DNA of 29,953 bases from a virus (taxonomy: Duplodnaviria; Caudoviricetes), in the IMG/VR virus record IMGVR_UViG_3300028633_000028, positions 1-29,953 of that record; one strand, 5' to 3'. Every line of letters starts with the position of its first letter. Position 1 is the stretch's first letter. The notes below the pieces were generated by a model. That model searched no databases and was not told the origin of the DNA. It worked only from the letters and a program-made list of their open reading frames with translations. Made by a program: the position numbers and the translations under genes. Below are positions 12,070-29,953 of this stretch, one piece after another.

Positions 12070-15000
12070 GGCTTTGGCGCTGGCCCTTGTCCTTTCTCTG
12101 AAGGACGAGGCCTCTAAGGGCCTTGATTCTATACGCGGTAGCCTGGGCGGGCTTGGTACGGCGGCGGCGGTTGCTGGAACGGCGATTGTCGGTACGGCGG
12201 CGGCGCTGACCAAACTGGCGGTAGACGCCATCCCAGTACAGGGTATCAAAGAGGCGTTTGACGGTGTGGCGGGGAGCGGCTCGAAGATGCTGGAAACGCT
12301 TCGGGCCGCCTCCTCGGGCATGGTCAAGGACGTAGACCTCATGATGAACTACAACCAGGCGGCCATGCTCGTTTCCAAGGACTTTGCCGACACCCTTCCC
12401 AATGCCATGCAGTACCTCCAAAAGGTGTCGGCGGCCACTGGCCAGTCCATGGATTTCATGATGAGTAGCCTGGTCAAGGGCGTGGGGCGCGTCTCGCCCA
12501 TGATTTTGGACAACCTCGGCATACAGGTGTCCCTCGAAGAAGCGACCTCGCGGGCGGCCAAAATGTTCGGCAAGGAAGCCGACGCCCTGGCCAAGACGGA
12601 GATTCAGGCGGGCCTCACTGAGGTCGTGATGGAGAAGCTGGCGGCGAACACGGCCAAAATGCCCGACGTGACTGGTAAGGCGGGGCAACAGTTGGCAACC
12701 TTCTCCACCCTGGTCGAGAACCTGAAGGATAGCATTGGGCTGGCCCTGTTGCCAGTCCTGTCGGCCTTCCTCAAACCCCTGACGGAAATAGCGAACCAGG
12801 TTGGCCCCAAGTTGCTGACCTGGATTGACGGGCTTTCGTCCTTCCTTGTGGACAGGGCGGTTCCGTCCATCGCGGCGGCGGGGCGCGGGCTGATGGACTT
12901 TTTCGGCCAGGCGGGCCAGGTTGCCAAGACGGTCATGGACACGGTTGGCGCCCTGTTCACCGGAGGGGTGGACTTCCCCTGGGAGGACATTCTTCCGGCC
13001 AGTTTGGTGGACACGGCCTACGCGGTTCGCGGTGCCCTGGCGGAGCTACAAACGGCCTTCGGCGGGCTTGTGGCGGCTGGCCAGGAAATGTTCGCCATCT
13101 TGGGCGGCGGCGGCGATTGGAGTTCCGTTTGGGAAGGGCTGAACACGGCCTTCGGCCCGGACGCGGCCTCGACCCTCACCAGTTTCGCCATCATCGCCAA
13201 CGGCACCATACAGGAAGTGGTTGGCTTCCTGTCGGGGCTTGTGGCCTGGTTCCAGTCCGACGGAGTAGCCATGTTCTCTCAGTGGGCGGCCATGGCCCAA
13301 GAGACGTTCGGCCTGGCGGCCCAAGTTGTCGGCAAGTTTGTGGCGGACGTCGCCCCCTGGCTGATGAACGAGCTTTCCAAGGCGCTCGAATGGGCGGGCG
13401 AAAAGTTCCAGGGGCTGGCCGACTTCATCCGTGAGATAATGCCCCGTATACAGCAAGTGGTTGGCGTGGCGCTCCAGAACCTGGCCAGATTTTGGGAGGA
13501 ACACGGCGAGAACATTCTGCGGGTGATTTCCTCGGCCTTTGACCTGGTTCGTGGCACCATAGACACGGTTCTTTCCGTGATACAGGGCGTCATCCGGCTT
13601 GTCCTGGACGCCATTCTGGGCAATTGGAGCGACGTGTGGAACGACGTCAAGTCCATTTTCAGCACGGCTTGGGCGGGCGTCCAAACCCTGTTGTCCAATG
13701 GCCTGGCTACCCTGAAGCGCCTGCTGGAGTTGGCGCTCCCCATGCTGTCGAACGCTTGGAACTCCCTGTGGGCGGCGCTGAAGGCCCTGGTCGAAACGGC
13801 CTGGCCCGAAATCACGAAGGCAGTACAAACGGCGGTTACCAACGTGTCCGACGCCATCGGCAAAAAGGTGACCGAGTTCGTCACGGCTGGCGAGAACCTT
13901 ATCAACGGCCTGATTGAGGGCGTGAAGGCAAAGGCCCAGTCTGTTCTTGATGCGGCTGTGGGGGTGGTCAAGGGCGCTGTAGGCGCGGTGGCCAATTTCC
14001 TCGGCATTCACTCCCCCTCCACTTTGTTCCAGGAGTTCGGCCAGGCGCTCATGCAGGGCCTGGCCATCGGCATAGACGAGAACAAGCTGGAACCCATGGC
14101 GGCCATGACAGGGGTTCTCCGCTCTGTCGTGGAGGACATGCAGGGAATCATGAACGTGCTTGGCGCGGACATGCCTGAAAAGAAGATGGACTTGGGGGCC
14201 TTCCTGGATTCCATCATGGGGATTTCTCACGAGATAGCTGTCTGGATGGCGACCAAGTGGGAGCAGGAAAAGGCGTTCCTCGGTTGGTTCTCCACTGACG
14301 TCAAGGCGGCGCTGGAGCTTTGGGTTGGCGGCCTGGAACCCATCCGTTCTATCTTCGACGTGGGCCAGGCCATCCTCGGCTTGTGTTCGGACAAGGGGAA
14401 ACAGGTTCTCGGTAGCGTGGAGGGGTTCCTTGGAACCCTGTACGGCATCACCACGGCGGTAGGCGGGTTCATCAGCGGGAAGTGGAAGGCCGATAGCAAG
14501 TTCTTCGCCTGGTTCGCGGAAGACATTACTCCCATCCTGAGCCAGTGGGCGGCGGGGCTGGCCCCCATGGCTTCCCTGCTGGAAACAGGGAACAGTATCA
14601 CGGCGGCCCTTTCCAAGAAGGCGGCCCAGGCGGAAACCACGGTAGCGGAGCTTCTTGGCGCCATCACGTCCATGATGGAACAGGTGGGTAACTACGTCTT
14701 TTCGGCCCGGAGCACCACTCAGAAGTTCGTGGCCCTGTTCGCGGAGCAGTTGACCCCCTTCCTGAAACAGTGGAACGATAGCTTGGAGCCGCTCCAGGGG
14801 CTTCTCTCTGTTTCCAAGTCTATACTTGACCTGGCGGCCGATGAGGCCAAGGAAACCAAGCTGTCGGTATTCGACTTCTTCGGGAACCTGGTCGGGGTGA
14901 TGGACAACGTGTGGCTCTACATTTCTGACGTGAACGAGCAGACGCGGCCCTTTGTGGCGGGGTTCGCGGAGCATATTACCCCATTCCTGGGCGAATGGCG

Positions 15001-16549: not shown

Positions 16550-16553
16550 CCCC

Positions 16554-18059
16554 ATGGCTGACCATGTTTGGTTCGTGAAAATCGCCTGGGACGGCTCCTC
16601 GGAAATAGACGAAGTTGCCTACTTCCGGTCTGTTCGGGTGGAGCGCGGGCGGAGCACCCCTTTCGCGACCATTTCGGCGGGGAAGTGTACTCTCGTTCTG
16701 GATAACTACACGGACAGGTTCTCTCCGTGGAACACTGGGAGCGCCATCTATCCGGACGTGACGCCTGGCAAGTCTATCAGGGTGGGAATGTATCAGTTCG
16801 ACCAGGACGACCCCCCACAAATAGCGTACCTGTTCCGGGGTGTCATACAAGACATTTTCCCGAGCGGCGGCCTGGGGGAGCGAACGGTTACCATCGTGGC
16901 CTACGACAGACTGAAGACGGTGGAGGAGCGCCAGGTTTCCATCGCGCTCAAAACGGACACGAACGACGACATAGCTTTGGCGGTTCTTGACGCGATAGGC
17001 GAGGACGTAAACTATGACACGGCGGGCCTCACGTCCTCCACGACGTACTTCTGGCCATTTGATAGCAAGGCGGGGCCACTCCTCCGCTCCATTGTGGACA
17101 GTGAGTTGGGCGCCTTGTGGGCCGACCCAAGTGGCTACCTGAAGCTGTACGGCCGCAACAATCTACACTACTCCGGCCAGGCGGTGGCGACGGAGTGGGC
17201 GCTGGACGAGGATTCCGTGGTTGACATGGAAGTGGGCCAGGCGTGGGAAAGCCTCTACAACCGAGTGACGGTGAACGCCTACCCCTACTCGCTTGGTTCT
17301 CTTGGCGAGGTGTGGCGGCTCCTGGAAGTGCTGGAGATAGCGCCAGGGGCGTCGTATACCACTTGGGCCTATTTTGAGGACGGAGATGGGAACCCTGCTC
17401 CGGCGTCGGACGTGGCATCGCCAGTGGCTACCACTGACTACACGGCGAACAGTCAGGCGGGCGGCGGTGGCGCGGATATGACTTCCAACCTGACGGTCAC
17501 GGCCACGGTCTACGCCGAGAAAGCCAAGTTGGTTCTGTCCAATACCCATGCCACGACGCCCCTGTTCGTGACGCTACTGAAGGTTCGCGGCAAGCCGATT
17601 TCCGTGGAGAAGGTTGCTGTAGTGGCCGAGGACGCCACTTCCCAGGCGGCCTACGGGGTGAGAGACGTGGTGGTGGACACTCCGTGGATACAGTCCGTAT
17701 CAAAGGCCACGGACTACGCCAATGCCCTTCTGTCGTTCTGGAAAGACCCCCAGGCGGCGATAAAGCTGAAGGTTCGGCACCTGTTGGGAACAGACCCGAA
17801 CATGCTCGGCGGAAGCATTTTGCTGGAGGGCGTCCATGAGTGGTATTCGCGTGACCTGTTCAACCTGGTTACCCTCACGGCCCCGTCCTACGGCATAGAT
17901 GGCGTCTACTACATCGGGGGGCTGACGTGGTGGACAGGTGTTTCCGCCGAGGACTTGTGGCTGGAAATGACCTTGGAACCGAAGGACAATCGCTCTTTCT
18001 GGGAGCTTGGGGTGGATGGGGCTACAGAACTTGGCACCACGACGGTACTGGGCTTCTAG
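16554..18059 (+). CDS. Minor tail / baseplate hub-like protein
   Basis: Directly follows the tape measure. Motifs VRVERGRS, AGKCTLVLDN, LFRGVI and LYNRVTV resemble siphovirus tail-tip proteins. The probable start is ATG 16554. Confidence 0.75.
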   Translation: MADHVWFVKIAWDGSSEIDEVAYFRSVRVERGRSTPFATISAGKCTLVLDNYTDRFSPWNTGSAIYPDVTPGKSIRVGMYQFDQDDPPQIAYLFRGVIQDIFPSGGLGERTVTIVAYDRLKTVEERQVSIALKTDTNDDIALAVLDAIGEDVNYDTAGLTSSTTYFWPFDSKAGPLLRSIVDSELGALWADPSGYLKLYGRNNLHYSGQAVATEWALDEDSVVDMEVGQAWESLYNRVTVNAYPYSLGSLGEVWRLLEVLEIAPGASYTTWAYFEDGDGNPAPASDVASPVATTDYTANSQAGGGGADMTSNLTVTATVYAEKAKLVLSNTHATTPLFVTLLKVRGKPISVEKVAVVAEDATSQAAYGVRDVVVDTPWIQSVSKATDYANALLSFWKDPQAAIKLKVRHLLGTDPNMLGGSILLEGVHEWYSRDLFNLVTLTAPSYGIDGVYYIGGLTWWTGVSAEDLWLEMTLEPKDNRSFWELGVDGATELGTTTVLGF

Positions 18060-18076
18060 CTGAAAGGGGGGCGCTC

Positions 18077-18499
18077 GTGGCCGAAGTGTTCGTGACGGAT
18101 AAGAAGGTGGTTCACCCGATTGTGGACGCGGATGACGACGCAAAGAAGCGGGGGTTCCCGGACGCGGCGGCGCTCCGGGCGGCCATGGCCCGGAGGCGGC
18201 GTATCCGCATCGCGGGGGTGGAGGGGCGCCAGGTGTACGCCCGGATTGATTGGGGGCGCTGGCTGGCCGACTGCCCGTTCTGTAACGGGTCAGAGTTGGT
18301 TTCCAAGAAAGAGCGCCTGTTCTTCTGCTTCTCCTGCGAAATGGAGGGGAATGGCGGCCAGGCGGTGGAAGTCCTGTTCCCCGAAGGCGTGGACAAGATA
18401 GAAGCGAGCCTGGCGGGGGAACGTGTGAGCTACCAGAACTGGCGCTGTGAAGTTGACGGCGGCCTGTACAGGGGCGTTCGCGAGAAAGGCGGTGGATAA
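18077..18499 (+). CDS. Zn-ribbon protein in the tail module (WLADCPFC...FFCFSC)
   Basis: GTG 18077 follows AAAGGGGG. It has two CxxC pairs and its stop overlaps the next start. Confidence 0.7.
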   Translation: MAEVFVTDKKVVHPIVDADDDAKKRGFPDAAALRAAMARRRRIRIAGVEGRQVYARIDWGRWLADCPFCNGSELVSKKERLFFCFSCEMEGNGGQAVEVLFPEGVDKIEASLAGERVSYQNWRCEVDGGLYRGVREKGGG

Positions 18500-18972
18500 T
18501 GGCCTGGACTGCTCCCCGAACCTGGGTCACTGGCGAAACGGTCACGGCGGCCATTATGAACACGCACGTGAAGGACAACCTAACGGCCCTGAAGGCGGCG
18601 GCTGGAACTCGGTGCCTGTTTTGGTGGATACCAGGCACGGCGTCCACTGGCACAAACAAGAGCGGCGAGATAACGTACAGGGGGCCTACCCTCACGCTGA
18701 AGCGTGCCGACGTAAGCGCCAAGACAGGCCCTGCGGGCGCCGACCTTATTTTTGACATCAACGAGGGCGGCACCTCCATTTGGGCCTCTACCCAGGCGAA
18801 CCGTGTCAAGATAGTGGACGGCGAAACCACGGGCACCCAAACGTCCTTTGACGACACCACTATTGCCGACGGTTCCAAGATAACGGTGGACGTAGACCAG
18901 GTTGGTTTAGGCACGGCGGGGGCCGACCTGAGCGTCAACCTGGAGGGCGAGTACACGGTGGAAGTGTCGTGA
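18499..18972 (+). CDS. Minor tail protein
   Basis: The N-terminus MAWTAPRTWVTGETVTAAIMNTHVKDNL is a recurring tail-fibre/minor-tail anchor pattern. Confidence 0.75.
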   Translation: MAWTAPRTWVTGETVTAAIMNTHVKDNLTALKAAAGTRCLFWWIPGTASTGTNKSGEITYRGPTLTLKRADVSAKTGPAGADLIFDINEGGTSIWASTQANRVKIVDGETTGTQTSFDDTTIADGSKITVDVDQVGLGTAGADLSVNLEGEYTVEVS

Positions 18973-20141
18973 AAGAAGTAACTGGTGACAGGTGGGAGTA
19001 CGGCAAGTGCTTCCACCACGAGCAAACATCGTGTCGTACCTACATTGTTCACAGTAAACCCGTCCATTTTTGGGACGCTGGCCGGTGGCACGAAGTAGAC
19101 ACGAACTGGCAACTTTCCTCTCGTCCCGGTTTTGCTTATGAAATGGTTGCGGCTGGTTACCAGGTATGGGCCGCACAAAACCTTCGAGCAACCCCGTTCT
19201 TGGTGGTGCGACGTCGTGGGGTGGAGAAGGCATACACGCTCGGGGGCGTGATTTGGAAGGGAAGATGGGGCCAACGGAAAAAGGTGGCAAACCTGCCCAA
19301 CGCCTCGGTTAACCAGGTGCGTCGGGACGCCCTTCTTGTTAAGGACTTTGTGCTTAAGGGCGTAACGCTCCAGGTTATAGCCGACCCAGTGCGCCCGGTG
19401 GTACTGGCCGAGGTGGGGGCTAACGCGCTCGAGAAGATAACAAAGTGGGACTGGCAGGACGACCAGGTTCCGGCCCTGACTGTTGACCTGGTTCCGTATA
19501 GTGGCGGGGTGTGGGGCGCTATGCTCGGTGTTGCCACTAACTACCCTGGGGAAACCGCGGACGGTGAAATCTACGGTCAAAACAACGGAACGTATGCCAC
19601 GGCCCGTAGCACCTCTACGGCGACGGACACGGCCTCAACCACTCTTCGGGTGGGACAGAACTGTTCTGGCGGTGTGATTTTCACGGTGTACAGGGGTTAT
19701 CTCAGTTTTGACACAAGCGCCATTGCGGATTCGTTCTCGGTGGAGACGGCCACCCTGTACGTCTGTGCGGATAGCGACCTCTCGTTCACGGACTTTCTAG
19801 TCAAGGTGTATCGCTTTGCCTGGGCGGAGGCCCTGGGCGGCGGTAACCAGGAGGCAAACTACGACGGAGCTTATGGCGGGAGCGCCACACTGGAAGGGAC
19901 GCTCCAGGACACGGCCACGGCCTGGACGGCGGGAACGTATTATAGCTTGGCGGTCACGCCCGCGGGTGTGAACAAGACAGGCGACACCAAGTACACGCTT
20001 GTCAGCAGTAGGGACGTGGATGGAACGCAACCGTCGGGAAACGAGTACGTTTTTGCCCGGACGGCTGACTATGCGGGAACCGGCTCTGACCCGTATATGG
20101 CCATCACTGTAGCCCCCGCGGGTTACGCGGCGATATTCTAA
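18969..20141 (+). CDS. Putative tail adhesin / receptor-binding protein with a DNRLRE-like C-terminal domain
   Basis: Last tail gene. YRGYLSFDTSAI...VETATLYV and PYMAIT resemble DNRLRE (disaggregatase-related) domains. Confidence 0.6.
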   Translation: MKEVTGDRWEYGKCFHHEQTSCRTYIVHSKPVHFWDAGRWHEVDTNWQLSSRPGFAYEMVAAGYQVWAAQNLRATPFLVVRRRGVEKAYTLGGVIWKGRWGQRKKVANLPNASVNQVRRDALLVKDFVLKGVTLQVIADPVRPVVLAEVGANALEKITKWDWQDDQVPALTVDLVPYSGGVWGAMLGVATNYPGETADGEIYGQNNGTYATARSTSTATDTASTTLRVGQNCSGGVIFTVYRGYLSFDTSAIADSFSVETATLYVCADSDLSFTDFLVKVYRFAWAEALGGGNQEANYDGAYGGSATLEGTLQDTATAWTAGTYYSLAVTPAGVNKTGDTKYTLVSSRDVDGTQPSGNEYVFARTADYAGTGSDPYMAITVAPAGYAAIF

Positions 20142-20157
20142 ACAAAAGGGGGAACCA

Positions 20158-20487
20158 ATGGTAACACAGAGAGAGGTGCTGGATGCAATAGAAAACCTGG
20201 CGGCCCAGGTGGGGGCCATCTCCAATGGGGGCCTGGGCGCCATTCGGAGCGACTTGGCGGCCCTGAGCGTGAAACTGGATGCGTTCAACGGGCGGCTCGA
20301 ATGGGTTCACGAGTGTGTGAACAAGCACGAGGAACGACTGGGCAAACACGACGTGGAGTTGGGGAAACTTGGCGTCACAGAGGAGGGTCACAAGGATAAC
20401 TGGAAACAGGTGGTAGCCTTTGGCACAAAGATTCTGGAGTGGGTCGTCTTGGGGGCGTTGGCGGCCAAGGTTACGTTCGGGAAATGA
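20158..20487 (+). CDS. Coiled-coil protein with a C-terminal hydrophobic segment (possible lysis-related)
   Basis: Heptad-like core followed by ILEWVVLGALAAKV, located after the tail genes. Confidence 0.6.
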   Translation: MVTQREVLDAIENLAAQVGAISNGGLGAIRSDLAALSVKLDAFNGRLEWVHECVNKHEERLGKHDVELGKLGVTEEGHKDNWKQVVAFGTKILEWVVLGALAAKVTFGK

Positions 20488-21308
20488 GTACAATTGTAGC
20501 CATTAACGGTGACCTGCACGTCAACTCACTGGTCGGGCTCTGTCCGCCGGTGTTTCGTAGAGAACGCGGCTCGGCGCACCTGCAATCCCCGGCTCAGAAG
20601 GCAAGTTGGGAGTGTTGGGTGAAGGACTGGGCGCACGTTCGGACAATGAAGGAGCAAACCGGAGCAAAGGTCTACGCGGTGTTCCCTGGAGATATGGTGG
20701 ACGTCAATGTGCGGAACAAGGCCGGGTTGATAACTCACAAGGAAAGCGACATTCTCCAGGCGGCGGTAGACGTCCTGGCTCCTGCTCGAGAAGTGGCTGA
20801 CAAGTTGTTCATTGTACGCGGTACCGCGGCCCACACTGGGTTGCAGGGGTGGATGGAAGACCAGATTGGAACCCTGATAGGCGCGGAGGAGGACAGCGAG
20901 ACGTACTCTCGGGCGTGGTGGAACCTTCCGCTCTTGGTGGAAGGTGTCCTGTTCGACGTCGGGCATCACCCGCATACTTACGGCATGCGCCCCTGGACGA
21001 AGCAATCGGCCCTGGCGCGGGAGAGCGCCATAATTCTGCATGAGGCGGCCACAAAGGGGTTCCGAATCCCCGACGTAGTGGTTCGCGCCCATGTTCACTA
21101 CTACGGCGACAGTGGGGACGGAACGCGACCACGGGTGTTCTTTGCTCCCCCGTGGCAGTGGACGACGAGCTTTGGGTTCCGGCTCGGTGTTGGAGCAGAC
21201 GTGGAACCAGTGGGAGGGCTTTTGTTCTTTTGCGACAACGGGACGTATAATTTCTATGCACGGCGGCACTTTGCCGCAGAAAGGGAACCGTGGACGGACA
21301 CGAAGTAG
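20484..21308 (+). CDS. Calcineurin-like metallophosphoesterase
   Basis: GDLHVN, PGDMVD, VRGTAAH (variant of GNH), GHH and RAHVH motifs. ATGA overlap at 20484. Confidence 0.8.
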   Translation: MSTIVAINGDLHVNSLVGLCPPVFRRERGSAHLQSPAQKASWECWVKDWAHVRTMKEQTGAKVYAVFPGDMVDVNVRNKAGLITHKESDILQAAVDVLAPAREVADKLFIVRGTAAHTGLQGWMEDQIGTLIGAEEDSETYSRAWWNLPLLVEGVLFDVGHHPHTYGMRPWTKQSALARESAIILHEAATKGFRIPDVVVRAHVHYYGDSGDGTRPRVFFAPPWQWTTSFGFRLGVGADVEPVGGLLFFCDNGTYNFYARRHFAAEREPWTDTK

Positions 21309-21598
21309 CAGGTGTAACCAGGGAACAGGTTTTGGCCGAGATTTTGGCGGCCGTGGAACTGGAGAACGTAACCGAAGACCTGGAGGCTTACACCATCAAC
21401 GAAATGGCTCAGGACACGGGAATGACAGTGTACACGGTAAGGCGAAAGGTGGGGCGGGCGGTTAAGGCCGGACGCCTGGTACCTGTTCGGGTGTACAGGA
21501 AGCTCGGCAAGCTGTCAAGGTTAACCACGGCTTACAAGGTTCCGGCGAGAGTGGGGCCTGGCCCTGCTCAATCTCCAGAGGAGGAAGAGAATGGATAG
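21290..21598 (+). CDS. Small putative (winged) HTH protein
   Basis: YTINEMAQDTGMTVYTVRRKVGRAVKAGRL is an HTH-like pattern. Confidence 0.6.
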   Translation: MDGHEVAGVTREQVLAEILAAVELENVTEDLEAYTINEMAQDTGMTVYTVRRKVGRAVKAGRLVPVRVYRKLGKLSRLTTAYKVPARVGPGPAQSPEEEENG

Positions 21599-21935
21599 CA
21601 AGGTTATCGCGTTTCTGCTTTGGCTGGCGTCGTTCCCGGCCCTGGGCGTGGTGGCGTCGTACGCGCTCCAGGGGTTGAAGGCGTTGTTCCCGCGAATCAA
21701 GGACAAGGCCGCGGTCATCGCCTCGGTGCTCCTGACGGCTGTTGCCGCCATCGCTGCCAACTTATTGCTTGCAAGGGGTATCGTCATCCCGGCCTGGCTG
21801 GAACAGTTGTGGCCGACGGGCGTGTGGCTCATTTCACAGATTTGGTATACCTTCGTGGTCAAGAAGGGGGCGGTCGCTCCGGCATCGAAGCCAAAGGTGG
21901 AACCCCCAAGTTGGGAAGGGGGCCAGCAAGGGTGA
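21591..21935 (+). CDS. Putative holin
   Basis: 114 aa with 2-3 hydrophobic segments and a charged C-terminus, at the end of the late operon. Confidence 0.65.
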   Translation: MDSKVIAFLLWLASFPALGVVASYALQGLKALFPRIKDKAAVIASVLLTAVAAIAANLLLARGIVIPAWLEQLWPTGVWLISQIWYTFVVKKGAVAPASKPKVEPPSWEGGQQG

Positions 21936-22206
21936 ACATGGTCACCTCCGGCGCCCATGAGACGTAAGTCTCTCCGACCAACACGGCCTGCGAGAAACTT
22001 TGCGGTTCGTCGGGGCGGCCTTCCGACAAGGCGATAGTGCGAAACAGATAGTACGGGGTCACGACCCAAGGCGGGGCGGCCCCGTACTTTTCTTTGTACA
22101 GGCGGCAGACTGATTCTACATGGTCGCGGGCATGGGCGGGGGCCTTGGGCGGGAATGGGATGGTGAGCCAGTGTCGGGTATGAACATTCGTCAGGCAGTT
22201 TACCAT
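21859..22206 (-). CDS. Hypothetical protein
   Basis: The start overlaps the stop of the upstream minus-strand gene (ATGGTAA). The 3' end overlaps the holin end. Confidence 0.45.
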   Translation of the reverse strand: MVNCLTNVHTRHWLTIPFPPKAPAHARDHVESVCRLYKEKYGAAPPWVVTPYYLFRTIALSEGRPDEPQSFSQAVLVGETYVSWAPEVTMFTLAGPLPNLGVPPLASMPERPPPS

Positions 22207-22544
22207 AGTTTCCTCTGGACGGGCTTGGGTGGTGTGGCCTCCCAGTGGGCCAGGCCCAATGCTACCTGAGGGCCATGGCCCCTGTCAAGTCGGAACCCCT
22301 TTTTGACGATTGTCTCTGTGCTGGCCCTGTACTCGATTCCGGTGTCTTTGTCCTGGATGAGCACAAAGTCGGCTCCGGCGTTCAGGGCCTCTTGGAAAGT
22401 TACCACGTCCATTGACCAGGCCAGGGGGCTGAGTAGCATGTGGCGCGAACCGTGAACGGGCTTGGTGAACACTCCCCCCTCCACTGTCCCGACGACGCGG
22501 GGCGGCGTTCCGGCGTAAATGGGCTTGGGGCGGGGTGGTTTCAT
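22200..22544 (-). CDS. Hypothetical phage protein
   Basis: RBS GGAGGAG precedes ATG 22544 (MKPPRPKP). The sequence is protein-like (HMLLSPLAWSMD, GFRLDRGHGPQVAL). Confidence 0.7.
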   Translation of the reverse strand: MKPPRPKPIYAGTPPRVVGTVEGGVFTKPVHGSRHMLLSPLAWSMDVVTFQEALNAGADFVLIQDKDTGIEYRASTETIVKKGFRLDRGHGPQVALGLAHWEATPPKPVQRKLW

Positions 22545-22712
22545 GGTTTTGGCTCCTCCATTTCCTCTCTCTTGCGACGATTGCCACAATGCGATTCTAG
22601 ACCACTTTCTGAAGGTGGGCCATATAACCGTGCGTAGCGCGAAATCCTCGCTCGGATTTGCGTTTGGGCCATGCTAGAATCGCACCAGAGTGAGGTAAAA
22701 GGCCTTTTTTCG

Positions 22713-22943
22713 TCACTTTTCGCCCCTTTTTGCGGGGCGCGGCCCCTGCGCCAGGGTTTCCATCGTGAACTTCCAAAATGGTGTTCCGCACCTTGTACAC
22801 CCAAAGTCCTGACGGGCCTGTACCATCACGGCGTCTGTGAGGCAGTAGCCACAAGTGGGGCAGCGCCAAAAGGTTCCGGGCCTTGGTTCCCTCCGGCCAC
22901 CCCTCGCCCCAAGTGGTGACCAGGGGTTCGCCAGGGCGCTCAA
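22713..22943 (-). CDS. Small Zn-ribbon protein (CPTC...CTRC)
   Basis: The probable TTG start overlaps the upstream TGA (TTGA). It has two CxxC pairs. Confidence 0.6.
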   Translation of the reverse strand: MSALANPWSPLGARGGRREPRPGTFWRCPTCGYCLTDAVMVQARQDFGCTRCGTPFWKFTMETLAQGPRPAKRGEK

Positions 22944-23416
22944 CTTTTCTTCTCCGCGGCGGCCCTGGTCATGGCCCTGGCGGCGGAAAGACATTCGGTC
23001 GGTTCTCCGGCGGCGCTGAACACTTCCTGTATGACGTGGATGGCATGGACATGGGCGGCCATGGTCAGGGGGTTCAGTGTCATCTGGAACCGGAACTGTT
23101 CCTGTTCGTACCTGGCGGCCACAAGTTCTTCATGAGCGCGGATGGCCTTCCTGCTGTAAACCTTCCAGCGGGCGGCCAGGGCGTGAGCGGAGGGCGGGTT
23201 GCCTGTGTCTATGGCGCCACTCTCGCATTCGGTCTGCAACCAGGCGTCCAGGGCGGCCACTGTTTCGGATAGTTCTGTGTCGGTTGGCTGAGCGGCTTCC
23301 AGCACGGCCATGGCCAGGGGGCGGACGGTGTTCCTGTGGGCCAGTTCGGCGGCGACGCTGGACGAAACGTCTGCGACGTATCTGGTGCCAGTGGGCGGGG
23401 TAATCTCGATTAGCAT
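22940..23416 (-). CDS. Hypothetical helical protein
   Basis: 158-aa ORF with a GAGGA RBS, in the minus-strand operon. Confidence 0.65.
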   Translation of the reverse strand: MLIEITPPTGTRYVADVSSSVAAELAHRNTVRPLAMAVLEAAQPTDTELSETVAALDAWLQTECESGAIDTGNPPSAHALAARWKVYSRKAIRAHEELVAARYEQEQFRFQMTLNPLTMAAHVHAIHVIQEVFSAAGEPTECLSAARAMTRAAAEKKS

Positions 23417-23690
23417 TCCTCGCCCCTACGCAGTCTAGAAGCTCCTCGCGGGCGGGGGCTTGGGCGTCGAAGGCGGCCAGGCGGGCGGCCCATTCCTCCT
23501 CGGTAACCTGGGAGCGGTACAGGCGCTCTAGCTTCTCGATGGCGGCCCCTGTCGCCAGTTCATTGTCGGGTTCTTCCTCTTCCTCTTCTTCCGTGACACA
23601 GTCACAATGCTTGACGGTACACAAGTCACAGTCGCCCCCGCAAAGGCGGCGAACGTGTTCGGGCGCTTCGGCGTCGTATGGGTATGTCAT
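23130..23690 (-). CDS. Hypothetical Cys-cluster/acidic protein (3' part overlaps the next gene)
   Basis: ATGA overlap at the start and CGGDCDLC...HCDC followed by poly-Glu. The last roughly 95 codons overlap 22940..23416 in another frame. Confidence 0.55.
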   Translation of the reverse strand: MTYPYDAEAPEHVRRLCGGDCDLCTVKHCDCVTEEEEEEEPDNELATGAAIEKLERLYRSQVTEEEWAARLAAFDAQAPAREELLDCVGARNANRDYPAHWHQIRRRRFVQRRRRTGPQEHRPPPGHGRAGSRSANRHRTIRNSGRPGRLVADRMREWRHRHRQPALRSRPGRPLEGLQQEGHPRS

Positions 23691-23992
23691 TTCTTCCCCC
23701 TTACCTCGTAGACACGCAGTTCGACTTTGTGTTCCAGGGCCTTCTTGACGGCGAAAGTGGCGGCTTCACCAATGTCCGCGAACCGCTCACGGAAGGTGTA
23801 GTCCCCCGCCTCGCTCAGGCCCATGACGAAGCACTCAACCCTGTCGTCCTGGCGGACACTCATCCGAACGGCTACTGTCTCACTCATTCCTTCCCTCCAC
23901 CTGAAAGTATGCGGCGCTCCAGCCTGGCCAACTCGGCGGCCCTGGCCCGACACCCTTCGCAGAACTCGGCGGGCCAGTTTCTTCTCGCTCAT
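23687..23992 (-). CDS. Hypothetical protein
   Basis: GGAGG precedes ATG 23992. There is an alternative internal start at MSETVAV. Confidence 0.55.
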   Translation of the reverse strand: MSEKKLARRVLRRVSGQGRRVGQAGAPHTFRWREGMSETVAVRMSVRQDDRVECFVMGLSEAGDYTFRERFADIGEAATFAVKKALEHKVELRVYEVRGKK

Positions 23993-24010
23993 CTTGTCCC
24001 TCCCCATTTC

Positions 24011-24118
24011 CTAGTATCTGAACCGAAGGTCAAGGGCGGTAACTGTGTTGGCGCTGGACTGGAACTGCGCCCTCACGCCCTTGTCGGCGTTCCCGCGGGC
24101 GAACAACTTGCGGGCCTT
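24011..24118 (-). pseudogene. 3' half of the small phage gene interrupted by the insertion
   Basis: KARKLFARGNADKGVRAQFQSSANTVTALDLRFRY* joins in frame to 25073..25132 when the 954-bp insert is removed. Confidence 0.75.
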
Positions 24119-24377
24119 CGCCCGACAACTCTCCCGAGACATTGACGCTCAGCCATAGGGCCCGCGCCCCAAACGGCTGCGCGATGTCGATGAGGTCGCC
24201 GGCGCGGTCCAAAGAGTTGGTCGACAGGGTCAGCCGTAGCAGCGGCCGCCGGGCCCACCACACGTGCAGGCGGTTTGGCGGCGGATGCAGGCCGGTGCTG
24301 TTCTCGCGCATACACTCTACGCCGATGGCCTGGGCTGGCAGCCAGTCTTCAATCAGTACGCGTCGTTTTGGGTTCAT
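24030..24377 (-). pseudogene. Chimeric ORF: first 46 aa of a DUF1156 adenine DNA methyltransferase + about 40 aa of a DUF499-like C-terminal region + an out-of-frame phage tail
   Basis: LIEDWLP...RE...PP..LHVWWARRPL is the DUF1156 N-terminal signature. The sequence changes character after RRPL and no catalytic motifs follow. Confidence 0.8.
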
Positions 24378-24835
24378 CGCACTGCCTCCATCAGGATGCG
24401 GAACGCGCGCAGCGCGCGTGTGTTATCGACCTGACCCAGCAGCCCTAGCCACCAGGCTGCCTGGTCGCCCGGGGTGTGGCGGATGTGCTTGGCCGCCAGC
24501 AGCAAGCGCTCGCCATCGCGCAGGCCAGCGGCGAGCAGCCCGTAGCAGGCCACCCGTGCCCCCCAGTCGGCATCCAACGGGTGGAAGGCCCCCCGCGAAA
24601 GCACGTCCTCGCTCCTCTGGCCAGCCTCAGCTTCGTTTCGTCCGGCCAGCACGGCCTGGCGCAACATCATCGCCGCCGCCCCAAAGCACAAGGGGCTCAG
24701 CGCGGCCACACGTCGCAGTCGGTCTCGGCCGGCGTTGTTGGCCTGGCGGCGGTAGATCACCGCTGCCGTGCCACCCTTGCGGTCAACAACGCGCAGGGCA
24801 AAAGGCGCCTGCCTGGTTGGGCTAGCTGGCACCAC
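24374..24835 (-). CDS. Intact small subunit of a DUF499/DUF1156 restriction-like system (DUF3780-like by position and C-terminal motif)
   Basis: It lies between a DUF499-like C-terminus and a DUF1156 N-terminus (ATGA overlap). The C-terminus is QAAWWLGLL...RALRAFRILMEAV. It has its own RBS GAGGAGGAG before the GTG. Confidence 0.7.
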   Translation of the reverse strand: MVPASPTRQAPFALRVVDRKGGTAAVIYRRQANNAGRDRLRRVAALSPLCFGAAAMMLRQAVLAGRNEAEAGQRSEDVLSRGAFHPLDADWGARVACYGLLAAGLRDGERLLLAAKHIRHTPGDQAAWWLGLLGQVDNTRALRAFRILMEAVR

Positions 24836-25079
24836 TGGTCTCCTCCTCGCCGAACTCGGCCTCTACCGACACCGTGCCAGCGGCCTTGACTTTCGCGTTG
24901 CGCACCGGTTCCTCGCCCAGGGGCCTGGCCGGCGCGGCCAAGTCGAGCGCCAACGACGCGCTGAACTGCACCGTGGCGGCATTGCAGGCCCGCTGCATCT
25001 CCCTGGCTCGCTCGATGGGCTTGAGCGGAGAGCTGTGCTTGACGTCGTTGACGGCGAAAAAGAGCTGGCCTCCGCCCGA
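24822..25079 (-). pseudogene. Startless C-terminal fragment of an upstream (DUF499-like ATPase) gene, not in the ORF track
   Basis: It reads SGGGQLFFAVNDVKHSSPLKPIERAREMQRACNAATVQFSASLALDLAAPARPLGEEPVRNAKVKAAGTVSVEAEFGEEETSGAS* and overlaps the start of the small gene. Confidence 0.65.
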
Positions 25080-25132
25080 TAGATTCGGGCCTTTCTTTCG
25101 TAGTATGTGGCGGGCTTGGTTGTGGCGCTCAT
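25073..25132 (-). pseudogene. 5' half of the interrupted small basic phage gene
   Basis: RBS AGGGGAG precedes the ATG of MSATTKPATYYERKARIYRA. The frame then runs into low-complexity out-of-frame sequence to TAG 24863. Confidence 0.75.
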
Positions 25133-25160
25133 TTGTCTCCCCTTTTCCTTATCCTGGCCT

Positions 25161-25189
25161 ATTATAGCGCCCCTGGCCCATTTTGTCAA
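25161..25189 (-). promoter_or_regulatory. Perfect consensus sigma70-type promoter
   Basis: On the minus strand: TTGACA (25189-25184), 17 bp, TATAAT (25166-25161). It lies upstream of ATG 25132. Confidence 0.9.
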
Positions 25190-25206
25190 GGGGTTTTGGG
25201 TAACTT

Positions 25207-25227
25207 TTTGGTTACAAATGGGTTACA
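25207..25227. promoter_or_regulatory. Tandem GGTTACA boxes with 11-bp period, upstream of the -35
   Basis: GGTTACA occurs at 25210 and 25221. The same arrangement is present at the 27.7-kb promoter. Confidence 0.65.
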
Positions 25228-27166
25228 ATTTTGGCGCGGCCAGGGCCTGGACTAGCTGGTTCATCATCTCGACGTCGGCGTACTGGCCCCCTTCCGTGGA
25301 GGCGTTGACCACGACACGCTTCTGCTCAATCAGGCGGTAAATGTCGTCGTCTATGGTGCCACTGGCCAGAAGGTACCAGGCGTTCACGGCGTTCTGCTGG
25401 CCGATGCGGTGGCAACGGTCTTCAGCCTGGTCGTGCTCGGCGGGGTTCCACCCAAGTTCCAGGAAGGCGACATTGGAGGCGGCGGTGAGCGTAAGGCCCA
25501 GGCCCCCTACCTTGGTGTTCATGACGATGAGGCGGCTGGCGGGGTCGTTCTGGAAGGCGTCTACGGCCTTCTGGCGGGCGGCCAGGGGTGTCTCACCTGT
25601 AATGGGCGTGACGCCAAAGTGGGCGGCCACTCGGTGGACGATTTCCTGGTGAGTAGCGAACACGACCAGTTTCTGCTCGGTTTCCAGGAAGGAACCAATC
25701 CAGTCCAGGGCGGCGGCCAGTTTCCCGCGAGCACACAGTTGCTTCAGGCTCTCAATCTTGACAAGCTGTTCGGCCCTGGCGGCGGAAGCGGCGGCCATGG
25801 CCCCCTCTTTGGCGCTACCTGTGAGGGCGGTTACGTTGTCCTGGAGCCATTCCAGGAAGGCGGACACGGCCCGCTCATACTCCTCGCGGTTGTCAATCGG
25901 TACGGACAGGTTGGTTCTTTGCTTGGCTGGCAGTTCTGTCAGTACCTCGGCCTTGGTTCTGCGGACGTAACAGGTGGAGCGGAGCTTGTCGTTCAGTTCG
26001 GCCAGGTTGGCGGCGCCCGAAAAGTCCCATCCCCAGGAGCCTTGCTTGGCGTCACAGTACCGCTTGGCAAACCCCCAAAACCCTCCCAGGTCATCCAGGC
26101 GCCCCAGTATCTGTAGCTGGCTTATGAGTTCGTGGGGGCGGTTGAGTACAGGTGTGCCGGTGAGGGCCAACCGAATGGGGACTTTGTGGGCAATAGCTTT
26201 ACAAAAGGCGGTTCGTTGGGCTTTGTAGTTCTTGGCATAGTGGCTCTCGTCGAGCACAACGGCTTTTGGCTCCAGGTCGGAGCGGCGCGTTACCTTCCCA
26301 TCCTTGACGGTCACCATCTTGGAAAGAATGTCGTAGTTGACCACTATCACGTCTGCCAGGCGGTTCACTCCCCCGTTCCACACGGCCACGGTCTTACCTG
26401 GTAACCACTTCCGGGCCTCACGTTCCCAGTTGAGCTTCAACGAGGCGGGGCAAATAATGATGGCCGGGAAAGCGTCGGCAGCGGCCAGGGTTGCCAGGGC
26501 CTCCACGGTCTTGCCAAGACCCATCTCGTCACAAATGAAGGTGCGTTGAGCCTGTAAACAGTATTGAACCCCCGCGGTCTGAAACGGACGAAGGGTTCCC
26601 CCCAGTTGTGTTGCCGGTACCTGGGGAATGCTCAGGGAAGGTTCGGCGGCCTGGCTCAGTTCCTGTTGGGCCGCTTTGGTTTCCCGGGCCTGCTCCATCC
26701 CTTCTCGGGCCTGGGGGCTTACGGCAAAAGCGAACCGCTCGGCCAGGGCCAGTAGTGGGGGCACGTTCTCGGCGTCGGGTACAATCTCCCAAACCTTGGC
26801 GGTGGCGTTCCACTTGCGACCCTGCCGGGGAAGCTCACGAATCGCGGCTACCAGTGTGGCACTATACGGACAGGACAGGAGCACGGTACCATCGTCCCAG
26901 GTGAGGCGGCAGTTGTTTGCGTCGTCGGGAATGGTGGGCTGTGGAATGGCGGCGTAGTCAATGCCAGCACTGGCCAACTGAGCACGGTACTTCGCCAGGA
27001 GCTTCCAGACAGCAAGTGCTTGGCGTGGTGACCAGGTGGAGCAGTCGGCCATTTTGTGACCAAAGTCGCTATCGTAGGCGTTGAACCCAATGCCGTTCAG
27101 GGTACGAACACGGTCGGGGTCACGGCCAACCATCACGTTCAGGGCTTGTCTTAGCAGGTTGTCCAT
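25223..27166 (-). CDS. SNF2-family helicase/translocase, SMARCAL1/HARP-like, with N-terminal extensions
   Basis: LRPFQ, DEMGLGKT, ICPASLKLNW, VLDESHYAKN, LTGTPVLN, GLGLTLTAA and QAEDRCHRIGQ. The N-terminal PYSATLVAAIRELP...WNATAKVW is HARP-like. Confidence 0.92.
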   Translation of the reverse strand: MDNLLRQALNVMVGRDPDRVRTLNGIGFNAYDSDFGHKMADCSTWSPRQALAVWKLLAKYRAQLASAGIDYAAIPQPTIPDDANNCRLTWDDGTVLLSCPYSATLVAAIRELPRQGRKWNATAKVWEIVPDAENVPPLLALAERFAFAVSPQAREGMEQARETKAAQQELSQAAEPSLSIPQVPATQLGGTLRPFQTAGVQYCLQAQRTFICDEMGLGKTVEALATLAAADAFPAIIICPASLKLNWEREARKWLPGKTVAVWNGGVNRLADVIVVNYDILSKMVTVKDGKVTRRSDLEPKAVVLDESHYAKNYKAQRTAFCKAIAHKVPIRLALTGTPVLNRPHELISQLQILGRLDDLGGFWGFAKRYCDAKQGSWGWDFSGAANLAELNDKLRSTCYVRRTKAEVLTELPAKQRTNLSVPIDNREEYERAVSAFLEWLQDNVTALTGSAKEGAMAAASAARAEQLVKIESLKQLCARGKLAAALDWIGSFLETEQKLVVFATHQEIVHRVAAHFGVTPITGETPLAARQKAVDAFQNDPASRLIVMNTKVGGLGLTLTAASNVAFLELGWNPAEHDQAEDRCHRIGQQNAVNAWYLLASGTIDDDIYRLIEQKRVVVNASTEGGQYADVEMMNQLVQALAAPKL

Positions 27167-27399
27167 TATGACCTGGCCTCGTCAACGAACTCGGCCTGTG
27201 TCCATCGGGCAAGGCTCCTGCCCACACTCCGGGCGGCGACTGGGTTGGGGTAGTAACGAACCTCGTCCACAACGCCATCCTTGACTATCGTAACGGCCCA
27301 CTCCTGGTGCGGGGTCATAATACGGGCAACCGGCTCAAAACACCTGCACTCCACAACGCTTACCTTCTCCGGGCCTGTTACCTTTACCTGGTTTGTCAT
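27166..27399 (-). CDS. Small hypothetical early protein
   Basis: 77 aa, RBS GGGGAG, with a TAATG overlap into the helicase. Confidence 0.7.
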   Translation of the reverse strand: MTNQVKVTGPEKVSVVECRCFEPVARIMTPHQEWAVTIVKDGVVDEVRYYPNPVAARSVGRSLARWTQAEFVDEARS

Positions 27400-27411
27400 T
27401 TTGTCTCCCCC

Positions 27412-27669
27412 TTAACCACGAAATCCGTTGGCCCAACGAAGCGCCTGGGCCATCGTCTTGAAGCTCGCCCCCCAGTTATAGTCGTCGTGGGGGCCACTGC
27501 TCAGTTGGTTGCTGTTCAGTCCCACGATGGTTGCCACTTTGTCATCGGTGCCGTTCCGGTACACGTCCAGAATGGCATAACCCTTCTTGCCACAAGCGCG
27601 GCCACTGTGCGGAAAGTGTACCTGGAACCCCTGCTTCTCCATCTTTGCTACCGCCGTGGTGAACTTCAT
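27412..27669 (-). CDS. Small hypothetical early protein
   Basis: 85 aa, the first gene after the 27.7-kb promoter. Confidence 0.7.
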   Translation of the reverse strand: MKFTTAVAKMEKQGFQVHFPHSGRACGKKGYAILDVYRNGTDDKVATIVGLNSNQLSSGPHDDYNWGASFKTMAQALRWANGFRG

Positions 27670-27697
27670 TGTCTTTCCCCCCGCTCAAGTATGACCG

Positions 27698-27726
27698 AGT
27701 GTACCATCTATACGGGGTTTTGTCAA
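27698..27726 (-). promoter_or_regulatory. Near-consensus sigma70-type promoter with extended -10
   Basis: On the minus strand: TTGACA (27726-27721), 17 bp ending TGG, TACACT (27703-27698). Confidence 0.85.
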
Positions 27727-27753
27727 GGGGTTTTGGTGCAAAAATAGTAGACA

Positions 27754-27774
27754 TTTGGTTACAGTTTGGTTACA
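27754..27774. promoter_or_regulatory. Tandem TTTGGTTACA boxes with 11-bp period
   Basis: TTTGGTTACA occurs at 27754 and 27765. Confidence 0.65.
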
Positions 27775-27782
27775 AGTGGGGT

Positions 27783-27811
27783 GGAGTGGGGAGGGACAAG
27801 CTCCCCACTCC
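27783..27811. terminator. Perfect 11-bp stem-loop upstream of the promoter
   Basis: GGAGTGGGGAG-ggacaag-CTCCCCACTCC, with no clear U-tract. Confidence 0.5.
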
Positions 27812-27906
27812 TGGGGGAAAGACGCGGGTTACCAGCCCGCAGGGGCGAAGAGGATTCGGCCCCCCTGGTGCGTCCGGCAGGTGCCAGGCGCACACGGGGA
27901 ACAAAA

Positions 27907-28119
27907 TCAGTCGGCTATAAACTTGGGGTTATAGACGCACTCCCCCAACACGTTCGTAACACAAGCAACCGGTTCGAACCACTTGCCGCTTTTGAACCCA
28001 TTGTGTCCCAAAGCCCTTGCGGTTTTGGTCGCGTCGTTAAAATGGGCGTGGCGGCTCAGGACTTTGTCGGTTCCCCATTCTACCACAGAAAACGGCTCGG
28101 CCTCAATTGCCCTTACCAC
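27907..28119 (-). CDS. Small hypothetical protein
   Basis: GGAGG precedes GTG 28119, which overlaps the stop of the hydrolase gene. Confidence 0.55.
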   Translation of the reverse strand: MVRAIEAEPFSVVEWGTDKVLSRHAHFNDATKTARALGHNGFKSGKWFEPVACVTNVLGECVYNPKFIAD

Positions 28120-29450
28120 TTGACAACCTCCACATTTTCCCAGTCCCCGTAGAAGCACCAGACAATGCCCAGGGCGTACTCCTGCCAAAGTATGGTCTTT
28201 CCTGAGCCACTGAGCTTTGCTTCCTTCTCCGGCCCCAGGGGCGCCCCCAGGTTCTCGGTCTGTGCTTTCTTGTACAGGGCAGCACCTGGGTTGAACTGTA
28301 CTCCCCGGCTCTCCCAGGAGCGAAGTCGTACCCCCCTGGAGATAGCATCGGGAGTTTCAACCGGTACGGTTGGTTGCCCCTGTGCGGGTGGAGCAGGTGG
28401 CGCAACTTTCATCGCCTCAACCACGGGCAGGGTTCTGTCCTTCTGTACCCAGGCGTTTTCCTCCCAGTCTCCCTTGCCCCCGGCGGCCCGGTCGCACAGG
28501 AGCCAGGACGCGAGACAGAAGTACCAGGGTGGCGTCTGTAGTTCGACCCAGTTGTACATCGCCACGGTACCCTCGGCCTGTTCCTTGTCACCGTAACCAG
28601 GGTATCCGGCGTCCTCCTGGTACCAGTCCTTCTTCGGTGGTATACCCCCCTCGGTGGCGAGAATGGGCACGTGAACGCCGAACGTTTTTGAGAACAGGTT
28701 GTCCAGGGCACGCCAACCGGTAACGCCATTGTCATAGTCCATCACGGTAACACCTGGTTCCCTGGCCTGGGCGATGGGGTCATTGGGGTACTCAAAATGC
28801 CAAACCCCCTTCTCGTCCCGGTACCAGTGGTTCAGTGCGTAGTCGTGCACGGCCAAACCCAAACCCTCGTTGATGAGCAGGCCCATCTCCGTGAACCGGT
28901 TCTGTTTGAGCCAGGCGATAGCTCGAGAGTGCCAGGGAATGCTCCCGCTTTCCTTGTGGTGACCGCACGGGGCCAACGGTGGGAAAAGGGGAATGCCCCC
29001 CTGGTAACAGATGGCCAGGGCGTCCTCTACCCAGTCAACCATCACGGCTTCGGGGTTTCCCCCTGGCACCCAGTGACCGTCCTTCCATTCCCCGGGCAGG
29101 TTTGGTTCGTTGTTTGGTTGAAAGTACCGCACGCCAGCACGAATGAGCACCTTCACGGCCGCAAGCTCGTCTTGGCTCAACCGTCCGGGGTTGGGGACAC
29201 CACGGTAGTTCCGCACAATGGGAACGATACCCCTGGCCAACAGGGCCTCACAAGTCTCCTGACTGCTCGTTCTTCCATCACGGCCTACGCCTCCGCGGTC
29301 GAGCACGACGGCCCATCCAATGTGCATTTGAACGAGCAGGTCAACCCACGATGCCAGGGCAACACCGGTGGGGTGCTCCAGCAGGGGCCACAGGTGTATG
29401 CCCCTCTTGGTTCCACTTGCGGGACGCGGGAAACTGCTAAGTGCTCTCAT
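28113..29450 (-). CDS. Clan GH-A-like TIM-barrel glycoside hydrolase with Pro-rich linker and C-terminal domain; candidate endolysin
   Basis: YFQPNNEPNL (acid/base Glu), LAVHDY and PILATEGG (nucleophile Glu). A linker APPAPPAQGQPTVP precedes a domain FNPGAALYKKA...LGAPL...QEYALGIV...GDWENV. ATGA overlap at 29450. Confidence 0.7.
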   Translation of the reverse strand: MRALSSFPRPASGTKRGIHLWPLLEHPTGVALASWVDLLVQMHIGWAVVLDRGGVGRDGRTSSQETCEALLARGIVPIVRNYRGVPNPGRLSQDELAAVKVLIRAGVRYFQPNNEPNLPGEWKDGHWVPGGNPEAVMVDWVEDALAICYQGGIPLFPPLAPCGHHKESGSIPWHSRAIAWLKQNRFTEMGLLINEGLGLAVHDYALNHWYRDEKGVWHFEYPNDPIAQAREPGVTVMDYDNGVTGWRALDNLFSKTFGVHVPILATEGGIPPKKDWYQEDAGYPGYGDKEQAEGTVAMYNWVELQTPPWYFCLASWLLCDRAAGGKGDWEENAWVQKDRTLPVVEAMKVAPPAPPAQGQPTVPVETPDAISRGVRLRSWESRGVQFNPGAALYKKAQTENLGAPLGPEKEAKLSGSGKTILWQEYALGIVWCFYGDWENVEVVKW

Positions 29451-29953
29451 TTCTTTCCTCCTAGTATCCTTGACATTTGCTCCCATCCTGAGACACGTCG
29501 TACCAGGTCATCGGTTACGGCCTGAGCGTTCCAGGGCTGGGTGAACAGGTAGGCGTAGCGGCCAGTCTTGGCCCAGGCCTCGCAGTTCTCCCATCTGTCG
29601 TCAATCAATATGTCGGCCCGGACGGCTGGCTTTACATCCGCGAACACCATGGGCCATCGGAAGCCATGGTTCAGTAGCCAGTAGCGTGTCGCCCTCTCTA
29701 CGTGGGGCGGGCGGGCGGTCACAATGACTATCTTCATCGTTTGGTAAATGTCAAGCAGGGCGTCCCTGGCCCCTGGTACGACGGGAACCCTTTGCACATT
29801 CTCAGGGGTGGCCATGAACCGCTCTATCTCTTTGCCAACGGAAAAGGCCCCGCTCTTGTAGTTCCAGTTCGTGACATGTCTCTCTTCCACGGTTACGCCA
29901 GTACGCTTCCGGAAGTCGCTCAGCACAGGGGTGAGCAGTTGCCCCAGGACGCC
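29447..29953 (-). CDS. HAD-family 5'(3')-deoxyribonucleotidase (NT5C-like), truncated at the window edge
   Basis: The frame is open to the window end and begins GVL (tail of DxDGVL). It contains PGARDAL, IVTARP, LIDDRWEN and LFTQPWN. Confidence 0.85.
   Translation of the reverse strand, partial: GVLGQLLTPVLSDFRKRTGVTVEERHVTNWNYKSGAFSVGKEIERFMATPENVQRVPVVPGARDALLDIYQTMKIVIVTARPPHVERATRYWLLNHGFRWPMVFADVKPAVRADILIDDRWENCEAWAKTGRYAYLFTQPWNAQAVTDDLVRRVSGWEQMSRILGGKK

Follow-up and report, generated by a model that had tools for sequence, protein, structure and literature searches.

A tailed phage carries a captured, circularly permuted piece of a MANTIS-like defence operon with a candidate counter-defence gene behind a phage promoter

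MANTIS, also designated Gao_RL or type-2 DUF499-centred BREX-related (BR) system, comprises the proteins MtsA-D (bioRxiv 10.64898/2026.09.23.753747; PMC12839542), and DUF3780 is reported as the usual small gene of this layout (PMC12839542). According to the MANTIS preprint (bioRxiv 10.64898/2026.09.23.753747), MtsA loads MtsC onto unmethylated sites, while MtsB does not change DNA binding, was not detected in the stable complex on DNA, and is nevertheless required for methylation and release. It also states that restriction needs all four proteins, MtsB included, that contacts between them are transient, and that breaking the MtsB dimer makes the full system untransformable. With that preprint, the function of the small subunit is no longer wholly unknown; its authors regard what MtsB does as unclear and anticipate anti-MANTIS mechanisms that are yet to be discovered.

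Co-option of parts of host defence is already known. Lambda Ral is described as speeding the methylation of unmodified DNA by host EcoKI, thereby raising phage survival (PMC12707154), and viral cas anti-CRISPRs as single host-defence subunits that are kept as viral orphans and turned against the host complex (bioRxiv 10.1101/2023.06.24.545427). Capture of toxI by phage phiTE-F (PMC3475682) and segmental amplification of dmd-tifA in T4 via 6-10-bp microhomologies (PMC9391042) are likewise on record.

The DNA analysed here (29,953 bp, hereafter the window) is a tailed-phage record with portal, capsid and tape measure genes, whose capsid protein matched those of cultured phages at 53% at most. 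Positions 24119-25072 (minus strand; G+C 68%, compared with 60% elsewhere in the window) hold a 954-bp fragment of a bacterial four-gene operon, circularly permuted and located inside a 55-codon phage gene that is interrupted at codon 20. The 5' part of this gene lies at 25073-25132 (minus strand, ATG at 25132) and its 3' part at 24011-24118 (minus strand); the 55-aa protein gave no Pfam or PHROG match. A 7-bp core common to the phage gene and the donor ATPase gene stands at both ends of the insert, its right copy at 25073-25079 (13 bp with one mismatch at 25067-25079) and its left copy at 24119-24125 (13 bp with one mismatch at 24113-24125).

In the direction of transcription, the insert opens with the startless last 86 codons of the donor's DUF499 (MtsA-like) ATPase (24822-25079, minus strand), which were 100% identical to the donor ORF and 33-41% identical to three full operon ATPases. 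An AGGAGG ribosome-binding site brought in from the donor (24842-24847, minus strand) stands 6 nt before the GTG start of an intact 153-aa gene (24374-24835, minus strand), which showed 0 base differences from the donor contig in run X13 and whose product matched Pfam DUF7680 (PF24728) over residues 12-150 (E = 2e-6, above the cut-off). Its stop codon overlaps the ATG of the first 46 codons of the donor's DUF1156 (MtsC-like) methylase (24240-24377, minus strand), a stub that matched DUF1156 (PF06634, E = 5e-12) and PADLOC HmaB. The ORF to which this stub belongs extends over 24030-24377 (115 aa), with residues 6-46 matching methylases and residues 40-88 matching the ATPase. Since it runs on, in frame, into an internal ATPase piece (24119-24239, minus strand) that immediately precedes the 24822-25079 piece in the donor, the insert is circularly permuted. 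The permutation joint (24240-24255) is the single remaining copy of a 16-bp donor repeat (15/16 alike, 12 contiguous).

A consensus sigma-70-type promoter, TTGACA-17-TATAAT, lies outside the captured DNA (25161-25189, minus strand) and belongs to the phage, as it is also present in the empty-site phage contig L008. It was the sole 12/12 match among 9 sites found in 15000-29953 (mean of 3.1 sites in shuffles), and 326 bp separate its end from the GTG of the small gene. From the phage ATG at 25132, a chimeric 89-aa ORF runs out of frame past the joint and terminates at 24863, leaving 15 nt to the captured ribosome-binding site, while the stub ORF stops 22 nt ahead of the next phage gene. Because of these two stops, expression of the captured gene appears plausible and the insertion probably non-polar. 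The gene would be transcribed early from the phage promoter, and ribosomes on the chimeric ORF would halt just before the captured ribosome-binding site. Contigs from RNA runs X15 and X17 covered parts of the gene and stub and were indistinguishable from host transcripts. Small leftward genes are preceded at 25181-25199 and 27698-27760 by two related promoter modules, both of which have GTAACC-type repeats upstream, and a third copy of the 19-bp module stretch occurs elsewhere on phage contigs.

The original prediction, made from the bases of the window, had proposed an intact 153-aa gene with its own ribosome-binding site, a perfect promoter about 330 bp upstream and a DUF499-like startless fragment before the gene, all of which were borne out. 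Its assignment of the downstream stub to DUF1156 also stood, but not the stub length of 46 aa, given the 115-aa ORF that continues through the ATPase piece. Taken as a whole, its observation was confirmed and its interpretation partly supported; it had overlooked that the insert is permuted and interrupts a phage gene, as well as the tandem-type junction described below.

Donor-type operons have the gene order of MANTIS, namely DUF499 ATPase, small gene, DUF1156 methylase and PLD-SNF2 helicase. The methylase continues past the stub in donor records L047, L048 and L075; the donor contigs end before the fourth gene, and PLD+SNF2 was read from four related DUF7680 operons, which on scanning all consisted of DUF499 (PF04465), DUF1156 and PLD+SNF2. 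The donor ATPase ORF (L047) matched 67 full-length proteins, all with PF04465, at 51% at best; the nearest named one, from a Chloroflexota MAG, showed only this 51%. Among 33 non-phage DUF7680 loci, a set that includes three donor records and two duplicate pairs, an ATPase tail was located just upstream in 28, a methylase motif downstream in 28 and both in 25; most misses were short contigs, and L074 had neither despite its length. Homologues thus do stand next to DUF499 and DUF1156 genes, as had been predicted. The predicted DUF3780 position of the small gene held for the slot, as judged by operon layout, but not for the family, which is DUF7680.

The small gene of MANTIS is normally DUF3780; here it is DUF7680, lacks a C-terminal tail and stands alone in a phage. 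Because the small protein matched PF24728 only, and not PF12635 (DUF3780), the donor system is by its sequence MANTIS-like and is not filed as MANTIS. Assignment to Hma or a type-1 BR system was ruled out by the position of the small gene between ATPase and methylase and by the N-terminal PLD domain on the helicase; the HmaB/HmaC profile matches reflect shared ancestry. The SNF2 helicase encoded at 25223-27166 of the window was rejected as a part of the system, since the empty phage and related phages also have it and it gave no PLD match. Neither the window nor the ORFs scanned on L045 and L079 contained a whole ATPase or methylase. Whole MANTIS-type operons were observed on viral-labelled contigs (L084-L109, 21 loci; L076; L077), so phages or islands also carry such systems as cargo.

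The DUF7680 protein had 302 relatives at E = 0.001 or better, and none of 19 distant relatives scanned matched PF12635. Profile comparison of DUF7680 with DUF3780 by hhalign gave E-values of 0.08-0.47 in four comparisons, with the same helices aligned each time. The predicted order of elements is alike in the two families (three strands, long helix, strand, four helices; models with pLDDT of 90 for DUF7680 and 78.5 for DUF3780), and the DUF7680 protein, which has no solved structural relative, is predicted to have the four-strand, five-helix type of fold described for MtsB. Proteins of both families have the motifs [EQ]-x-x-W-W and R-x-A-x-R, the first of which falls, in DUF7680, where the E156-W159 dimer contact of MtsB is reported. 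Sequences and models together suggest that DUF7680 is likely a diverged MtsB; at the E-values given above, evidence from orphan DUF3780 genes transfers to DUF7680 by inference only. A Foldseek search with the DUF7680 model gave no match at E = 0.001 in PDB and viral libraries, the best VIA match reached Z = 5.5 over helices only, and ESM Atlas gave no usable match; these blanks signify neither novelty nor absence. DUF3780 was not seen in four genomes with DUF7680 operons (G003-G006), in a search in which the control was silent as well.

Both parents of the insert were found. L047 holds the donor in normal gene order, 99.8% identical to the insert, and L008 holds the phage with a vacant site, that is, an unbroken 55-codon gene behind an identical promoter. 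The donor repeats, at L047 1096-1111 and 2050-2065, are 954 bp apart, with the ATPase gene and the methylase gene containing one each; both encode an R-P-L motif, and one fused copy of the two is retained in the window. Run X13, which was not flagged as a possible source of the window, contained both parents as separate unbroken contigs: the empty phage, with a joint that skips the 954 bases (depth 5.6), and an 18,926-base donor contig (depth 19) that keeps the unit in donor order and shows 0 differences over 24240-25072. The inserted form was contiguous within one contig in X1 and X12, as well as in L001, L002 and L045, and was found in pieces in X3 and X14. It occurred without the empty joint in four of the five DNA runs compared, out of 14 that contain most of its sequence words; three of these four may be the source of the window. 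The empty form was present in L008, X13 and X16; in X16, an RNA run, a 245-base contig spans the empty site and, starting upstream of the promoter, may be DNA.

With both parents recovered at 99.8-100% identity and joints lying in microhomologies of 7 bp and 12-16 bp, the insert is a real and very recent capture, and an assembly chimera is very unlikely. Persistence of the empty phage beside the donor in X13 indicated that the insert is not needed there, and runs with the insert may belong to one sampling campaign, so that its prevalence can be a founder effect. From the capture itself, the donor would be the host of the phage. Selection on this DUF7680 copy is unmeasurable, since it is 100% identical to a donor.

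In specialised transduction, and in the formation of type II F-prime elements, integration followed by excision between flanking host sequences yields a permuted product with two flanks. The product seen here is of the same type; the core, however, lies inside an ordinary gene, and no integrase match was obtained among selected ORFs from about 43 kb of the roughly 44-kb phage genome, to which L045 and L079 extend the window. Capture would have required two crossovers in short homologies, one between the 16-bp host repeats in ATPase and methylase genes and one at the 7-bp core in the phage gene. In one possible route, deletion between the host repeats would release a 954-bp mini-circle that inserts at the core; in the other, the phage would join the chromosome at the core and leave via the host repeats, carrying both flanks. 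The two routes give an identical product and fit the data equally. A phage-encoded AAA_24/Sak4-like protein (E = 8e-25 in Pfam, 1e-8 in PHROG), as an annealing function, would be the likely agent of the crossovers. R-P-L was encoded in both the ATPase and the methylase genes of all eight other operons checked, with less DNA identity, so a pop-out unit appears to be built into these operons. In the donor itself, loss of the DNA between the two repeats would join the ATPase reading frame to that of the methylase and eliminate the small gene, which could serve the host as an off-switch. The donor ATPase gene also contains an exact direct repeat of 18 bp (L047, about 652 and 1390), which may be an assembly effect.

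Contig graphs further pointed to possible amplification of the unit. In X3 and X14, a 53-base contig joins the unit's end to its start in a head-to-tail junction. The unit formed one unbroken 961-base contig in X3, with no branch toward host flanks and no empty joint; depth was 18.1 for the unit, 14.3 and 12.1 for its flanks and 5.5 for the junction. Donor flanks were absent from X1, X3 and X12. Tandem copies are the likely and best fit to this junction; a free circle, or host flanks that failed to assemble, is possible instead. As in the phiTE-F toxI and T4 tifA cases, recombination would bring in a protective component of the host, with amplification by microhomology. The published cases arose under laboratory selection against toxin-antitoxin systems, whereas the window concerns a natural population, a protein subunit, a permuted insert and tandem copies deduced from contig graphs.

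Orphan homologues in other phages, which the original prediction had suggested looking for, were found for DUF3780 and not for DUF7680. DUF7680 occurred at four loci on viral contigs, two of this phage and two in whole operons, and no second lone copy was found at these loci or in 50,697 GenBank phage records. DUF3780 occurred at 32 viral loci, 21 in operons and 11 without ATPase or methylase nearby, and Proteus phage Pm34 provided a twelfth lone record. None of these 12 records, most of which are incomplete (19-100%), gave a DUF499 or DUF1156 Pfam match, against two positives in two controls. Neighbours were clearly phage genes in L084, L101, L107, L110, L111, L112 and Pm34, partly phage-like in L098 (MazG) and L114 (repressor), and unclear in L089, L113 and L115. 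In Pm34 (vB_PvuS_Pm34, KY420199.1; L116 5328-6462, gp5-gp4, annotated as hypothetical), the final 191 codons of the ATPase (79% to an operon copy) are followed by a whole, tail-less DUF3780 gene, located after the lysis genes. By its sequence, Pm34 represents an independent capture with the anatomy of the window insert, an ATPase 3' end plus a whole small gene.

A tree of 54 rows, comprising 11 orphans (partial L115 omitted), 17 copies labelled operon (L078 by its neighbour only) and 26 unlabelled ones, required six label changes for the orphans, five of them forced by well-supported branches, although long branches blur some placements; the orphans formed one clade in 0% of 200 bootstrap trees. 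Pairwise dN/dS was 0.11 (0.042/0.386) for L110-L111, 0.20 (0.177/0.875) for L089-L098 and 0.08 (0.236/3.0, near saturation) for L110-L112. As far as sequence comparison can tell, lone DUF3780 genes are thus recurrent in phages and under purifying selection. A tail-less, phage-specific DUF3780 clade was observed in L110 (6025-6498), L111 (934-1404) and L112 (6016-6486), where the genes immediately precede recombination genes of Sak4-like or Bet-like type, in phages that otherwise differ.

The C-terminus extended at most 17 residues past the last helix motif in 6 of the 12 orphans, compared with none of 21 operon copies and none of 120 database proteins. Tails of the small subunit often carry a motif that resembles a sliding-clamp-binding peptide. 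With a pattern picked after the tails had been inspected, this motif was present in 17 of the 21 operon tails and in 1 of the 12 orphans; among the 120 database tails, 36 had it, where shuffling would give 5. DUF7680 proteins are naturally without a tail (median of 8 residues). Of 17 DUF7680-type operons, 6 had a clamp-binding-like word at the methylase end, and of 13 DUF3780-type operons none did; in L055, L057, L061, L062, L070 and L076, such a word plus an acidic tail ends the methylase. These sequences suggest a likely swap of the motif between subunits, with the methylase carrying it in DUF7680-type systems and the small subunit in DUF3780-type systems. A literature search covering few subscription journals yielded no paper on lone MtsB, DUF3780 or DUF7680 phage genes or on an anti-MANTIS protein, and term searches of the main texts of bioRxiv 10.64898/2026.09.23.753747 and PMC12839542 gave no orphan or phage-borne copies.

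From the piece, its two parents, both joints and the gene slot, we infer a capture route, expression and an effect that together make the best explanation: a permuted MANTIS-like piece was captured behind a phage promoter, and its DUF7680 gene likely acts in counter-defence via over-methylation of phage DNA. The probability of this reading was estimated at roughly 0.45. A counter-defence role is suggested because other phages have independently captured and kept a likely equivalent gene. An early surplus of DUF7680 protein would tip bound ATPase-methylase-DNA complexes towards methylation and release before the nuclease cuts. As MtsB is the reported trigger of methylation in MANTIS, the surplus subunit would most likely act like lambda Ral, also a small protein that favours methylation of incoming DNA; Ral, in the account cited above, is a phage protein that acts on type IA HsdM, whereas here the host's own activator would be present in excess. 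Still more tentatively, lone MtsB-type genes may form the first anti-MANTIS (anti-BREX-related) family, in which the trigger was taken up on six or more occasions, mostly with loss of its clamp-docking-like tail so that it acts on phage DNA, and the window may then display the birth of one member in a wild population, with donor, empty phage, both crossovers and early amplification visible.

It is possible, though rather unlikely, that the insert is a neutral passenger, an accidental by-product of microhomology in which repeat placement left the gene whole and drift or a founder effect spread it. Zero divergence from the donor, the existence of the empty form and the pop-out unit built into eight of eight other operons all agree with such an origin. 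Moreover, 65 sites of 13 bp, each with no more than one mismatch, are common to the unit and the phage, and the 7-bp core is therefore not special. However, only 15 of these 65 sites give sense orientation and a whole gene, and only four of the 15 lie in the leftward arm; the site used falls in the gene that directly follows the only perfect promoter found, an after-the-fact observation on one event. The tandem-type junction in two of five DNA runs and the independent, long-kept lone DUF3780 genes of other phages also argue against a neutral passenger.

In line with the titration suggested in the original prediction, a surplus subunit might instead sequester ATPase or methylase, or uncouple the nuclease, so that neither cutting nor methylation occurs. 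The reported need for all four subunits and their transient contacts would permit this, the long branches and lost or replaced tails of orphan DUF3780 proteins are as expected of dominant-negative forms, and viral cas genes act in this way. Those genes are tested, diverged CRISPR inhibitors; the window gene is an undiverged capture from a methylation-based system, with parents and joints visible and a predicted function. Such titration is unlikely, and less likely than over-activation, because this copy is the unaltered host protein and MtsB is the reported methylation trigger; with MtsB reported outside the stable DNA-bound complex and binding unaffected, there would also be little to titrate.

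It is highly improbable that the phage gained from loss of the 55-aa early protein, which may trigger host defence, with the cargo incidental: the break at codon 20, with frames open almost to the next gene, would indeed not be polar, but point mutation or deletion is far more frequent than a two-crossover capture, the protein matched no family in Pfam or PHROG, and neither the tandem-type junction nor the other orphans would be explained. A chimera assembled from phage and host reads, which the original prediction had named as a hazard, is very unlikely and the least probable reading of all: although the evidence comes from contigs and not raw reads, metagenomes from digesters and sludge contain donor and phage together and most runs with the sequence may belong to the source campaign, the joints have only 7-16 bp in common, the permuted joint is in neither parent, the same form was assembled in several runs and two collections, donor flanks are absent from three of these runs, and the parents assemble apart in X13.

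Other features of the phage genome were recorded alongside. Several 5-mers showed an extreme physical-strand bias across both oppositely transcribed arms (GGCGG, 322 on the plus and 19 on the minus strand; GGTGG, 115:8; ACGGC, 139:11; counted over the whole window plus L045 1-4882). The bias survived codon resampling, recurred in L008, L082 and, for the first two words, L012, and was absent from the insert and from bacterial operons; it fits orientation-dependent restriction pressure (type III-like), or replication or Chi-like polarity. Considered as a footprint of the donor's system, the words were not tied to it, for, strong as the bias is, the main word is a 5-mer without adenine. Palindromes were avoided (GGGCCC, 4 against 64 expected; AAGCTT, 2 against 29 expected). 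A 411-aa gene among the head-tail genes (9331-10566) gave weak methyltransferase and glycosyltransferase matches, and a 457-aa ORF (28113-29486, minus strand) gave no Pfam or PHROG match.

The first origin of anti-defence genes is rarely seen outside laboratory evolution, and here each intermediate state of the capture is preserved to the single base. MtsB genes that phages carry naturally without the tail are ready reagents for the role of MtsB and for anti-MANTIS mechanisms, gp4 of Pm34, a tail-less copy in a cultured phage, being the best for bench work. The permuted insert, finally, is a searchable signature for other fresh captures of host genes by phages.
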